UHGV virus genome: UHGV-0201380
Length of the DNA: 43,652 bases
From: a virus
Direction: 5' to 3' (one strand)
The position numbers and the translations under genes are program-made. The notes under the pieces are model-generated. The model ran no database searches. It saw only the letters and a program-made list of their open reading frames with translations, and was not told where the DNA came from. Shown one piece after another: positions 2,689 through 5,398 of the stretch. The stretch's first letter is position 1. The number at the start of each line of letters is the position of its first letter.

Positions 2689-3969
2689 TCACCGGTTAAT
2701 CTGGCCCTCGTCAAAGCGGCAACGACCCGGCTCGAATCCCACCTCGAATTGCAGTAGCGACTCTTTACCAGACAGTGCCATCTTGTTCTTCGGAGTACTG
2801 ATACCACGGACGTTTTGCATGTGCGGCTGCTCGTTCCTGTCCAAGCATCCCATCATAATCGCCAAGTCCAAGGCACCCTGTACACCAATCTTGCTCTGCT
2901 TCATAGCGGTGAGCGGCGGGAACAACATGTTGTAACCTTCGAGTGAAAGCTGCATAGTCCCTACGATAGCGCAGTCGTTCTCGCACCCAAGGATGCGCAG
3001 CTCCTGCCATTTCGCCTCTAGGTTCTGGTGCTCACTCTCCATAGTACCGCCACGGATATTCGCCACCATATCAATGATGATTACCGCGGGGCGCATCTCC
3101 TCCATGAGCGTGGATATCTGCGCCATCGTCAAGGAGTGCGCAGCCTTAACGCGAATCCGGTCAGCCCTGCCTACTTTCTTGAGGTAGGCTGGCACGAACT
3201 CTTGCTTACTGTGCCGGTCCTTAATCTCCGCCAGAGTCCAGTGCAGCGCCGCTTGATATACCCTCGGCACTGTACGCGTCGCCGGACCCTCGTTAACCAG
3301 CCAGAGAATCGGGCGGTCCCCGTATACTTCCGGCTGCTGCTGCATCTGCTCAGCAAAGTCCACAGCAATAGCAGCAAGCAGGCTAGTTTTACCAGAGTCC
3401 ACAGGAGCAGCCACTGCGATGCAGTCCCCGCCACGTAGACCTCGGATGTTGCTAGCGAGTTGCTCGAACACGCCCAGTTTAAGACCGCCGCTCTCATCAG
3501 TCGCGGCAAGTATCTCGTCAACACTACCGCTCTCCCATTCAAGCAGCGAATCATGCACCGCAGCGCCATCACCGTACTTGCGCTGTAGGTGCTTCATTTC
3601 CAGCAGGTAATCAATCTCCTCGCCGTCTTGATAGCGCTGCGTCAGCGCTGCTACCTCCCCGCTGTAGGCCAGCTCGTTCAGGGTCTGGACAATCCCCACC
3701 ACAGAATCCTGTGGCACGGCTTGTACTCCCCGCATAAGCTCGTCCATGATTACCCGCTCTTCCCGGGACAGGTGCCCCGCCCGGAGGTTTAGCATGCTCT
3801 GCATTGCATCCCACTGAACCTCCTGGTGCTCCGGGTACGTGTTCCAGTACAACCCCACCCAGTCTAGTAGGTTAGCTGTGTCCGGCGCTAGCATGGATTT
3901 GGGTATCTGTTCACGCAGTCGGTTCCATACCTTCTGCGTGCACATTGCCTTAACTACTATTAGGTCCAA
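2689..3969 (-). CDS. DnaB-like replicative DNA helicase (T7 gp4 helicase-domain homolog), encoded separately from primase
   Basis: 426-aa ORF. Walker A AAPVDSGKTSLL and Walker B-like PAVIIIDMV. Start is TTG, preceded by a strong AAGGAGG Shine-Dalgarno 5 nt upstream. Confidence 0.85.
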   Translation of the reverse strand: MDLIVVKAMCTQKVWNRLREQIPKSMLAPDTANLLDWVGLYWNTYPEHQEVQWDAMQSMLNLRAGHLSREERVIMDELMRGVQAVPQDSVVGIVQTLNELAYSGEVAALTQRYQDGEEIDYLLEMKHLQRKYGDGAAVHDSLLEWESGSVDEILAATDESGGLKLGVFEQLASNIRGLRGGDCIAVAAPVDSGKTSLLAAIAVDFAEQMQQQPEVYGDRPILWLVNEGPATRTVPRVYQAALHWTLAEIKDRHSKQEFVPAYLKKVGRADRIRVKAAHSLTMAQISTLMEEMRPAVIIIDMVANIRGGTMESEHQNLEAKWQELRILGCENDCAIVGTMQLSLEGYNMLFPPLTAMKQSKIGVQGALDLAIMMGCLDRNEQPHMQNVRGISTPKNKMALSGKESLLQFEVGFEPGRCRFDEGQINR

Positions 3970-4164
3970 TTAAACCTCCTTAGGAACACAGATTGCTTTA
4001 GCGGTATACACCCTGAATGTGTCAAACTTCTCTTCGAACGCCTTGGCCGCCTTGTTGCAGGCGGCCCCCGTTGTGAACTCTTGAGTGGTTAGCGCAGCGA
4101 AGTCTGTGTCGCTAACCGCACTGCCATTAATCGCCATGATTAAAACCCAGATACCCATACTCAT
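3970..4164 (-). CDS. Hypothetical small protein with hydrophobic N-terminus, translationally coupled between primase and helicase
   Basis: 64-aa ORF. N-terminal MSMGIWVLIMAINGSAVS looks like a signal peptide or TM segment. Its start overlaps the primase stop and its stop abuts the helicase start. Confidence 0.45.
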   Translation of the reverse strand: MSMGIWVLIMAINGSAVSDTDFAALTTQEFTTGAACNKAAKAFEEKFDTFRVYTAKAICVPKEV

Positions 4165-4946
4165 TGTAAAGCCTCCAGAATCTCTTTGATTTCTGCATCC
4201 TTCGGGTCCGCAGCGAAGTAATGCTCACGGCACTGCATGAACGGACGCAGTGCTCGGCGCGCCGCTGCTACCCCAGCATGTCCAGCCGGGTCATTATCCA
4301 GCATCAGAATCACTTCCGGGCGATTCTGAATCAGCCAAGCCCTCAGCGGCGTGGGCAAGCGTGTACCCAGCATAGCTATAGCCTGCACGTTCAATGCACT
4401 GTAACTCGTAACTGCGTGCTGTATCTTCCGGGCTGAGAGTAAGTCCTCGGTGAGCACGACCTTTAGAGGCGCGGCCGCAGCTACAGCCGGTGCTACGGCA
4501 GGTGCCGCGACAGCGAAAGCTATTGGCTGGCCGTACATTACCCACTTCGGTTGCTGCCGAGCATGCACTGCACGGCCCAGAGCAGCGCTTCCGACACGGA
4601 AGATTATCCGCTGTTTCTCTTTGCTCCATTCTGCATCCTCCACCATTTCAGGCATGATTCCCTTTGTGGTCAGGAATCCGTAAATAAAACTCTGCGTTTC
4701 CGCAGGCGCTTGGCTAATGCAAATTGCATCTGCAGGTGCAGCGGGCTGCACCCTCGGCTCTTCCTGTAACTGTATGCGCTGGTACTGCTTGTGCTCCTTG
4801 CCCACCTGTTTGCAGCGGTGGCAATAATATTCCCAGGCATCCGGGTTATTGTAGAGCACCCCGGCGGCGTCCCTGCCGCAGCACCGAAAGCGCGCCCTCT
4901 GCCCAACGGCCAGGCGCTTGCACGCTCTAAGCCAGGGCTGGTCCAT
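4161..4946 (-). CDS. DNA primase (zinc-ribbon plus TOPRIM domain)
   Basis: 261 aa. Cys-rich N-terminus (RFRCCGRD ... YYCHRCKQ) consistent with a zinc ribbon; ILMLDNDPAGHAG matches the TOPRIM DxD motif. ATG overlaps the stop of the upstream ORF by 1 nt. Confidence 0.75.
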   Translation of the reverse strand: MDQPWLRACKRLAVGQRARFRCCGRDAAGVLYNNPDAWEYYCHRCKQVGKEHKQYQRIQLQEEPRVQPAAPADAICISQAPAETQSFIYGFLTTKGIMPEMVEDAEWSKEKQRIIFRVGSAALGRAVHARQQPKWVMYGQPIAFAVAAPAVAPAVAAAAPLKVVLTEDLLSARKIQHAVTSYSALNVQAIAMLGTRLPTPLRAWLIQNRPEVILMLDNDPAGHAGVAAARRALRPFMQCREHYFAADPKDAEIKEILEALQ

Positions 4947-5398
4947 TACTGAATCTCTCGCTTAACTTTCATAGCCATTCGACGAATGTCATGTGCCAAC
5001 TGCAGGGCTGAATCGGGGCTCATATTAATACCAATCTCTCGCTCTGCCCGGGTGCTGCCTTTTCTAGGCACTATTCCGATGTATAGTAGTCCTTCGTTAG
5101 TCTCGCTGTCCTTTTCTAATACCAGCCGCTGGTCGTTTCCTGGGTCTCGTTTAGTGTTTAAATATGCTACACTAGACGGAACCGGTGGCAGCTCGTCCGC
5201 CTCCTCGATTAGCTGCCAGAAGTCGGCAGAGCCGCCATAGATATCCCCGGCATAATGAATCCCTGCGCCTTCGGTTAGCTTGATGTCTATATAGAGGCCA
5301 GGCCCCTTAGTGACTATCTCGCCGCGCACGGTCTTACCTTCAATCTTATTGATGCGCTGAACCTTATCACCTACTTTAAAAAGTTTAGACATAATCAA
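4946..5398 (-). CDS. Hypothetical protein
   Basis: 150-aa ORF tightly packed between the peptidase-like gene and primase, with 4-nt overlaps at both ends. No motif recognised. Confidence 0.5.
   Translation of the reverse strand: MIMSKLFKVGDKVQRINKIEGKTVRGEIVTKGPGLYIDIKLTEGAGIHYAGDIYGGSADFWQLIEEADELPPVPSSVAYLNTKRDPGNDQRLVLEKDSETNEGLLYIGIVPRKGSTRAEREIGINMSPDSALQLAHDIRRMAMKVKREIQ

Follow-up and report, generated by a model that had tools for sequence, protein, structure and literature searches.

A small optional gene at the primase-helicase junction of a KP34-like Klebsiella phage

The region studied here contains three real genes, which together make up the usual replication module of a Klebsiella phage related to KP34. 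The middle one is, as its distribution among related genomes shows, an optional and swappable accessory cassette at a variable junction between primase and helicase. With a probability of about 0.6 we read its 64-aa product as a soluble, dispensable host-interaction factor and not as a subunit of the replisome. Such a soluble accessory protein is the most likely reading, and a role in the periplasm is its main rival. The small gene occupies a junction at which other small genes or an HNH homing endonuclease take its place in relatives, and its product would, for example, bind or inhibit some protein of the host or of a defence system. A dispensable host-interaction role is proposed because the distribution of the gene is patchy and mobile and because it would be co-expressed with the middle (replication) genes.

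The window, which is the whole analysed stretch of 43,652 nucleotides of the UHGV virus genome UHGV-0201380, comes from a Drulisvirus, a KP34-like podophage with Klebsiella as host. The region matches 249 phage records at 80-99% DNA identity, nearly all of them from Klebsiella Drulisvirus. A search of the window for tRNA genes found none. All three ORFs proposed by an earlier reading of the letters alone (the sequence-only reading) are present at their coordinates, and all lie on the minus strand: the primase of 261 aa (4161-4946, ATG start), the small ORF of 64 aa (3970-4164, ATG start) and the helicase of 426 aa (2689-3969, TTG start). In KP34 they are annotated as gp14 primase, gp15 conserved hypothetical protein (ACY66746.1) and gp16 helicase. 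The KP34 gp15 gene has the same position between gp14 and gp16 and the same overlapping start and stop signals, and nothing material is different.

The primase, which equals KP34 gp14, is predicted to be of the DnaG/TOPRIM type. It matches Toprim_2 above the curated threshold (23.1 bits, Pfam cutoff 22.1) as well as phrog_47, "DNA primase" (E 4.7e-38), and its N-terminal part contains Cys/His motifs that are putatively zinc-binding (CC22-23 and C42-H-R-C45). Its ATG overlaps the TAA of an upstream 150-aa gene as TAATG. The helicase equals KP34 gp16 and is assigned to the DnaB-like type, as in the C-terminal part of T7 gp4, on the basis of a RecA-type domain (AAA_25 with 47.5 bits and DnaB_C with 34.8 bits, cutoffs 27; phrog_19, E 1.5e-71) with a Walker A motif, APVDSGKT, at residues 188-195. 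Sequence searches of the PDB, run for each protein alone and also for a profile of the family, gave no relative of the small protein, of the primase or, at E < 1e-3, of the helicase.

In T7 gp4 primase and helicase are fused in one polypeptide. The sequence-only reading had pointed out that the genes studied here are split, and this is correct: primase and helicase are two ORFs of verified coordinates with a 195-nt gene between them, and relatives in which the junction is empty also keep two ORFs, in different frames. The split is already known and has been the annotated norm in the genus since 2011, when KP34p14 (261 aa) and KP34p16 (426 aa) were reported (PMC3082699); the protein sizes of this phiKMV/KP34-type module match those in the window.

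The small ORF is a real gene, and the substitution pattern among its alleles indicates that its protein is under strong purifying selection. Twelve Drulisvirus alleles give pS = 0.525, pN = 0.024 and dN/dS = 0.027, the variable columns are distributed 11/4/44 over the three codon positions, and the other two frames of the region, which are interrupted by stops, have dN/dS values above 2.7. On the dN/dS value we reject the idea that the ORF arose by chance or is a spacer without coding function. The protein is 98% identical over 64 aa to KP34 gp15, with a single difference (G33 here, E33 in KP34). It is assigned to the KP34 gp15/PHROG 3766 family by a full-length profile match (E 5.2e-23, residues 4-64 aligned with positions 1-62 of the 66 in the profile) together with the family signature, all elements of which it contains: an N-terminal W-[IV]-L-I, then F30, C36, A39 and C59, and the end ...CV.K. 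In 28 diverse members no variation is seen at F30, C36, A39 and C59, and conservation at W6, L8 and I9 is at least 90%. Related families are phrog_5579 and phrog_6794, and members have about 54-64 aa. Searching 1.84 billion representatives with hmmsearch gave 25 matches at E < 1e-3, all except one 41-64 aa long. Pfam and NCBIfam contain no family that matches the small protein, and a literature search on the protein, its PHROG or the junction as a hot spot found nothing specific.

The signals at both ends of the small ORF support the earlier claim that it is translationally coupled to its neighbours. The TGA of the primase (4161-4163) overlaps the ATG of the small ORF (4162-4164) as ATGA, and the TAA of the small ORF (3970-3972) immediately precedes the TTG of the helicase (3967-3969), so that TAA-TTG (3967-3972, minus strand) forms a stop-start junction in the same reading frame. 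The Shine-Dalgarno motif of the small ORF, GGAGG (4172-4176, minus strand), lies within the last codons of the primase (L-E-A), 7 nt upstream of the ATG. In all examined relatives with a KP34-type primase end this GGAGG precedes the first junction gene, which begins 6-8 nt after it; in two HNH-bearing relatives the primase end is divergent. A second ATG in the small ORF (4156-4158) is the counterpart of the start, ATG or GTG, that many relatives use. Scans for sigma-70-like promoters and terminator-like sites in or adjacent to 3970-4164 found none, and the cassette is for this reason taken to be expressed within the operon. A classical phage "moron" with its own promoter and terminator was also considered and rejected, as these scans gave neither a sigma-70-like promoter nor a terminator and as overlapping stop and start codons tie the gene into its surroundings.

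The helicase start at TTG, which the sequence-only reading had placed behind a perfect AAGGAGG, is backed by comparative codon data. The motif (3975-3981, minus strand) is 5 nt upstream of the TTG and is formed by the last codons of the small ORF (AAG GAG GTT, K-E-V); homologues of the small ORF outside Drulisvirus mostly end in ...CV.K without the E-V extension. In 14 related junctions helicase codons 2-8 differ nearly always synonymously (GAC/GAT; CTA/CTT/TTA/CTG; GTA/GTT; GTT/GTG/GTC; GCA/GCG), with one K/R change besides. In Pone and KP-Rio an HNH gene takes over TTG GAC CTA ATA G, and the helicase restarts with ATG GAT TTA ATA, by which MDLI is retained. The TTG start is therefore supported both by the almost exclusively synonymous variation in the eight codons before the first ATG and by the swap of TTG for ATG beside the HNH gene. 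Several GenBank records start the helicase at the ATG eight codons downstream of the TTG; for annotation, the helicase of the genus starts at the TTG (or at the ATG in HNH-bearing variants) and not at this downstream ATG.

The occupancy of the junction varies strongly among the relatives. A search of the whole records, and not of the junction alone, found the small ORF in 107 of 248 phage records with the same primase and helicase flanks and did not find it in the other 141, and the core-gene table of Drulisvirus lists p14 and p16 but not p15 (PMC4411677). As it is not present in all phages with the primase and the helicase, it does not qualify as a core replisome component of Drulisvirus. The junction is empty in KpV475 and has there the sequence CTGGAGGCTCTAATTGGACC; in relatives of this kind there is a 20-nt overlap, in different frames, between the primase ORF and the helicase start. 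A 90-nt query across the KpV475 junction does not discriminate empty junctions, as its two halves join across an insert. Other phages carry a 46-aa gene (VLC1), a 68-aa gene (SFN6B) or a 57-aa gene (JKT6) at this place, while the small ORF is combined with a 68-aa gene in KpV71, with the 46-aa gene in KpV74 and with a 74-aa gene and the 46-aa gene in RCIP0104. Pone and KP-Rio contain the small ORF plus HNH, phi1_066009 and PTF1 HNH only, and PWKp7 an HNH remnant. At least four other small genes thus occur at the junction, alone or two or three combined, and the alternative cassettes fall in different PHROGs. Several of the alternative cassettes share the terminal GGAGGTTTAA, and the small-gene cassettes carry their own GGAGG and a stop beside the helicase TTG; therefore the helicase stays translationally coupled with any insert.

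The hydrophobic N-terminus of the small protein (GIWVLIMAI), which had been described as signal-peptide or TM-like, is truly present, but it has neither the basic n-region and freely varying core of a Sec signal peptide nor the length of a TM helix. A single-pass membrane anchor was rejected, since the hydrophobic run is short and since the segment is modelled as a strand and not as a helix. Measured from the motif up to whichever comes first, a charged residue or N/Q/H/P, the run has a median length of 10 residues in 69 family members, whereas about 18-20 would be needed. The AlphaFold2 model has a beta-beta-alpha-beta order, in which three strands (residues 6-14, 22-30, 53-61) are joined by a single helix (33-47) ahead of the last one, and codons 5-14 (IWVLIMAING, 4123-4152, minus strand) correspond to beta-strand 1. 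With 12 sequences the pLDDT was 80, and with 28 diverse sequences it rose to 88 (pTM 0.72); the mean pLDDT of residues 1-10 is 84. AlphaFold2 can, however, wrongly make a sheet strand of a hydrophobic N-terminus. The model suggests that the hydrophobic N-terminus is probably the buried first strand of a compact domain and that the protein is probably soluble and cytoplasmic. It is perhaps a dimer, as strand 1 is hydrophobic on either side. In BFVD the same fold recurs in many small phage proteins that are uncharacterised (TM 0.7-0.8). A Foldseek search of the model against the PDB gave nothing at E <= 0.001, and the alpha+beta plaits PurS, PII/SbtB, ClpS, BMC shell proteins and AcrIIC3 resemble it in shape only, at 5-10% identity and without membership.

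The main rival of this soluble protein is an exported one, with a Sec peptide cleaved after about A16, a mature part of about 47 aa, a C36-C59 disulfide and a periplasmic role at the envelope, for instance in excluding superinfecting phages or inhibiting an enzyme of the periplasm. T4 Spackle is an analogue for such a role. The hydrophobic core of the window protein, about 9-10 residues long, is followed by G14-S15-A16, which fits the small residues expected at -3/-1; the GenBank record of Pone names the orthologue a "putative secreted protein" with a SignalP call over residues 1-16; and copies in Arsenophonus prophages adjoin the integrase, a common site of exclusion genes. C36 and C59 are invariant also in divergent homologues; should they lie near each other in the fold, a disulfide between them is suggested, which would speak for the periplasm. 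Against export stands that K/R precedes the hydrophobic core in only 1 of 69 members and D/E in three; the window protein contains no K/R before residue 38, and the family median of the first K/R is residue 32. A basic n-region is near-universal in Gram-negative Sec signal peptides. The h-region is moreover the most conserved part of the family, with near-invariant W6, L8 and I9 and a mean entropy of 1.17 bits for residues 5-12 compared to 1.7-2.6 elsewhere, whereas signal peptides drift freely. Many homologues have no acceptable -3/-1 cleavage motif, and AlphaFold2 confidently places the segment in a sheet, with a confidence that rises as the alignment becomes deeper. The missing basic n-region and the conserved core speak against a Sec signal peptide, and we regard export as an unlikely explanation, though one to be taken seriously.

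A membrane-associated replisome component, as suggested by the sequence-only reading, does not agree with the distribution of the gene or with its strand-modelled N-terminus. More generally, the small protein could link primase and helicase, or load them, and so compensate for the missing fusion of the T7 gp4 type. The position of the gene between the two, with translational coupling to both, would fit such an accessory. Homologues in comparable surroundings would fit as well, namely in a T4-like phage (between the helicase gp41 and the primase gp61), in an Arsenophonus prophage (behind an SNF2 helicase) and behind RecT-SSB. However, the gene is absent from the 141 records mentioned above, whose flanks have 80-99% DNA identity and which include phages with a primase that overlaps the helicase, it is replaced by unrelated small genes or HNH, and it is missing from the core-gene table of the genus (PMC4411677). 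Homologues also occur at unrelated positions, one of them between terminase and portal and another upstream of the primase. This pattern of presence and absence largely refutes a replisome accessory, which we consider improbable. The small ORF could also matter only for the expression of the helicase, as a translational-coupling spacer or a regulatory upstream ORF, with a peptide that has no function itself. The Shine-Dalgarno motif of the helicase within its last codons, the stop abutting the TTG and the longer motif of the cassette (AAGGAGGT) compared to the empty junction (GGAGGC) are in favour of that, but a purely regulatory peptide is contradicted by a dN/dS of 0.03 with near-saturated synonymous change, by a family that keeps 30-60% identity in unrelated phages where the adjoining genes are others, and by the confident predicted fold; we give it hardly any weight.

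The family members in unrelated phages and prophages are found at varied genome positions. A distant relative with a primase of 37% identity has a small-ORF homologue of 60% identity upstream of the primase. In the T4-like phage PEi20 the homologue is ORF-032 (58 aa, identity 37%), which has genes 41 and 61 on either side and adjoins mobE. Further homologues are located in the early region of Friunavirus, in BcepIL02 and next to the integrase of Arsenophonus prophages. Because four of the sampled contexts adjoin replication or recombination genes, a loose functional link of the small protein to DNA metabolism may exist. We also looked for a conserved partner among the neighbours; in two contexts a 77-aa ORF follows downstream, and these ORFs are unrelated and have no Pfam matches.

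Two known systems resemble the favoured soluble accessory protein and its junction. T7 has small non-essential genes (4.3, 4.5, 4.7, 5.3-5.9) among its replication genes, and several of their products bind host proteins. The likeness is an analogy in the way of working, i.e. tiny, packed and coupled ORFs in the class II genes that are dispensable for replication; Pfam, PDB sequence search and Foldseek gave no sequence or fold link between the small protein and these T7 genes. The region between genes 41 and 61 of T4-type phages, to which PEi20 ORF-032 belongs, is hyperplastic and contains small 61.x ORFs and the homing endonuclease mobE, and the primase-helicase junction of Drulisvirus likewise gathers small ORFs and HNH endonucleases. 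The T4-type region differs in that the helicase precedes the primase, the other flanking genes are not the same and several kb with many ORFs are involved. A more far-reaching proposal has two parts: the 55-64-aa family would represent a novel type of small phage inhibitor whose target is a protein of host defence or of host DNA metabolism, and the gene would move from one phage to another, unrelated one as a cassette bounded by two Shine-Dalgarno copies, for which the Drulisvirus primase-helicase junction (GGAGG..TAA-TTGGACC) would serve as a landing pad shared with homing endonucleases. Taken together we hold this proposal to be doubtful.

Drulisvirus phages are widely used as therapeutic candidates. 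The junction as a swap site for optional small genes shows engineers where cargo is tolerated and identifies genes that could modulate host range, and the 64-aa gene should not receive a membrane or secreted label from its hydrophobic N-terminus alone. Beyond these points of annotation and engineering the gene arrangement is ordinary for Drulisvirus.

The composition of the small ORF speaks for a foreign signature. Its GC content is 49.7% compared to 56-58% in the flanking genes, and its synonymous divergence of 0.525 is about double that of the flanks (0.19 and 0.29). An 11-nt direct repeat, ACTTCGCTGCG, spans 4093-4219 on the minus strand, with one copy at the 3' end of the primase (4209-4219, Y-F-A-A) and one in the small ORF (4093-4103, D-F-A-A). 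In the database protein P0022 residues 1-24 of the small ORF are fused to the C-terminal tail of the primase, and the joint lies precisely at the repeat; recombination of one copy with the other would be expected to give such a fusion.

All genes in the primase-helicase part of the window lie on the minus strand. The primase (4161-4946, 261 aa, ATG start), with a Toprim_2 domain slightly over the Pfam threshold and a match to phrog_47 (E 4.7e-38), and the helicase (2689-3969, 426 aa, TTG start), with AAA_25 and DnaB_C domains over threshold, the Walker A motif APVDSGKT and a match to phrog_19 (E 1.5e-71), are indeed separate genes, as the sequence-only reading had proposed. The small ORF (3970-4164, 64 aa, ATG start) is located between them, and a family A DNA polymerase (805 aa, GTG start) is encoded at 73-2490. 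The 2.4-kb region is matched by 249 phage records at 80-99% DNA identity, which nearly throughout belong to Klebsiella Drulisvirus, a genus of the Slopekvirinae (Autographiviridae) with the type phage KP34. The arrangement in KP34 is alike, where gp14 (261 aa), gp15 (64 aa) and gp16 (426 aa) are annotated as putative primase, conserved hypothetical protein and putative helicase, respectively (PMC3082699). That primase and helicase are encoded separately is therefore established for this lineage and no peculiarity of the window; the observation of three genes with a TTG start is correct, and the arrangement is already known for KP34-like phages. ORFs of at least 120 aa, the long ones almost all on the minus strand, are found from end to end, and tRNA genes were not found. 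The window looks like a complete phage genome.

The primase TGA and the small-ORF ATG overlap as ATGA, with GGAGG 7 nt upstream, and the small-ORF TAA directly adjoins, in the same frame, the helicase TTG; these two contacts bear out the suspected translational coupling to both neighbours. AAGGAGG precedes the TTG by 5 nt and lies within the final three codons of the small ORF (AAG GAG GTT). Further upstream, the TAA of a 150-aa gene, whose start is listed as TTG, overlaps the primase ATG as TAATG (4944-4948, minus strand), and the ORF coordinates show overlaps of 1-4 nt between the 656-aa, 353-aa and 150-aa ORFs and the genes next to them, too (as far upstream as 6456), so that the block up to the helicase looks like a single chain of stop-start overlaps.

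The substitution pattern marks the small ORF as a real gene. In 12 Drulisvirus alleles 44 third, 11 first and 4 second codon positions vary, and the pooled values (pS 0.525, pN 0.024, dN/dS 0.027) differ from those of the remaining two frames, which contain stops and exceed a dN/dS of 2.7. The product is an already catalogued hypothetical protein, matching phrog_3766 (E 5.2e-23), with weaker matches to phrog_5579 and phrog_6794, all of them PHROGs without assigned function. When 1.84 billion representative proteins were searched with a profile, 25 relatives were recovered at E < 1e-3, of which 24 measure 41-64 aa; a word-indexed search gave 56. The cassette encodes a conserved small protein that is predicted to be folded. 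The first two residues of other alleles (MS, MN, MD, MT) are variable additions, and in AttikonH1 (L024, 700) and VLC3 (L026, 700) the conserved start position, which corresponds to M3 in the window, carries GTG in place of ATG. The KP-Rio/2015 allele (L010, 937-1137) reaches 66 aa through an in-frame tandem duplication of 12 nt (FEEK-FEEK) in the predicted helix.

As to the conservation in relatives on which the sequence-only reading had made the small ORF depend, purifying selection is evident but presence is not general: only 107 of the 248 records with primase and helicase flanks carry it, the same number by protein or sensitive DNA search. Among 60 evenly spaced records, in which occupancy was judged from the length of the matched span, about 42% have the small ORF and about 20% an empty junction. 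In KpV475 the junction is empty, with a 20-nt overlap between the primase ORF and the helicase start (TTG), VLC1 contains a 46-aa, SFN6B a 68-aa and JKT6 a 57-aa gene instead, and the small ORF is combined with a 68-aa gene in KpV71, with a 46-aa gene in KpV74 and with both a preceding 74-aa and a following 46-aa gene in RCIP0104. Pone and KP-Rio carry the small ORF plus an HNH endonuclease gene (L005, 1132-1583; L010, 1138-1590), phi1_066009 and PTF1 an HNH endonuclease alone, and PWKp7 a decayed HNH remnant (L013, 927-1066), which looks like an internally deleted gene of the phi1_066009 type. The alternative cassettes belong to different PHROGs. The core-gene table of the genus includes KP34p14 and p16 and omits p15 (PMC4411677). 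The small ORF is an optional, translationally coupled cassette within the operon, which is exchanged among phages; the gene is dispensable and occupies a swap site.

Behind KP34-type primase ends the first junction gene starts 6-8 nt past the same GGAGG in the primase L-E-A codons, and several small-gene cassettes terminate in GGAGGTTTAA followed by TTGGACC, so that with any insert the helicase retains its Shine-Dalgarno sequence and stop-start junction. Outside Drulisvirus most homologues end in ...CV.K, to which the Drulisvirus alleles add E-V, the part encoding the helicase Shine-Dalgarno sequence.

The cassette has a GC content of 49.7% versus 56-58% in the flanking genes, and at synonymous sites it diverges about twice as much (0.525) as the primase 3' end (0.19) and the helicase 5' end (0.29) do in the same 12 phages; both features suggest older or imported alleles. 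On a metagenomic contig of a distant relative (SRR28796305_110303; L030, 4001-4186) a 60% identical homologue is placed not between primase and helicase but ahead of the primase, after the 150-aa gene; these two neighbours are less conserved (37% identity). The primase 3' end (4209-4219) and the small ORF (4093-4103) share an 11-nt direct repeat, ACTTCGCTGCG (minus strand). In a 41-aa database protein, P0022, residues 1-24 of the small protein are joined exactly at this repeat to the primase C-terminal tail (DPKDAEIKEILEAL...), and this fusion point suggests that the two copies have recombined in some phage.

The helicase TTG start behind AAGGAGG is well supported by comparison. In 13 relatives plus the window nearly all variation in the eight codons that separate TTG from the next in-frame ATG (MDLIVVKA) is synonymous (GAC/GAT, CTA/CTT/TTA/CTG, GTA/GTT, GTT/GTG/GTC, GCA/GCG), with one conservative K/R replacement. 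In Pone and KP-Rio the HNH gene uses TTGGACCTAATAG, the helicase's own first 13 nt, as its start, and the helicase start is recoded downstream as ATG GAT TTA ATA, which keeps MDLI. Both observations are strong comparative evidence that translation begins at the codon that is TTG in the window, and the GenBank starts at the ATG eight codons downstream in SFN6B (L004, 1167), phi1_066009 (L011, 1389) and AttikonH1 (L024, 913), which give a gene of 1257 instead of 1281 nt, are therefore probably annotation errors. Some helicase starts in the databases thus appear to be miscalled.

The N-terminus had been read as signal-peptide or TM-like, and one GenBank record of a phage orthologue cites a SignalP match for it. 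Against this, 68 of 69 family members have no K/R ahead of the hydrophobic core (three have an acidic residue there) and the first K/R follows at a median residue of 32. With a median length of 10 residues, the hydrophobic run falls short of a membrane-spanning helix. The segment is also the conservation peak (1.17 bits versus 1.7-2.6 bits elsewhere; W6, L8 and I9 are near-invariant), while signal-peptide cores normally vary freely. In the AlphaFold2 model it forms strand 1 of a beta-beta-alpha-beta domain, and what looks like a signal peptide is probably a beta-strand of the protein core. Because the predicted strand is hydrophobic on both faces, a dimer or a bound partner is suggested. An exported periplasmic protein with a disulfide, for which the invariant pair C36/C59 is the main argument besides the SignalP match, is in view of these family data unlikely, though the main alternative.

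With moderate confidence we favor a soluble cytoplasmic binder, which would be expressed together with the replication genes and act outside the replisome on a host or defence protein. The analogy is T7, where small non-essential genes are scattered among the replication genes. Replication genes are found near several homologues, not all, and no conserved neighbour was found across the sampled contexts; an accessory factor of the replisome is quite improbable. A mere coupling spacer, to which the junction overlaps could point, has next to no probability for an ORF under such selection.

Homologues are located between helicase gene 41 and primase gene 61, adjoining a mobE homing endonuclease, in the T4-like Edwardsiella phage PEi20, among small early genes of Burkholderia phage BcepIL02, in the early region of Acinetobacter Friunavirus, immediately after RecT-SSB on a phage-like contig, and between terminase and portal on another phage contig. 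In Arsenophonus prophages the homologue follows an SNF2 helicase and adjoins an integrase. The A. nasoniae chromosome CP123504.1 contains the same 58-aa homologue at least twice (L017, L018; 2.07 and 2.40 Mb), both in prophage-like blocks of DNA pol A, Bro-N, ORF6N, SNF2 helicase, homologue and integrase. One member (L020, 5001-5180; Logan SRR24524783_0), between a YhdP-family gene and cupin plus sulfate-transporter genes, is apparently chromosomal and non-phage, and represents a relic or else a member put to chromosomal use.
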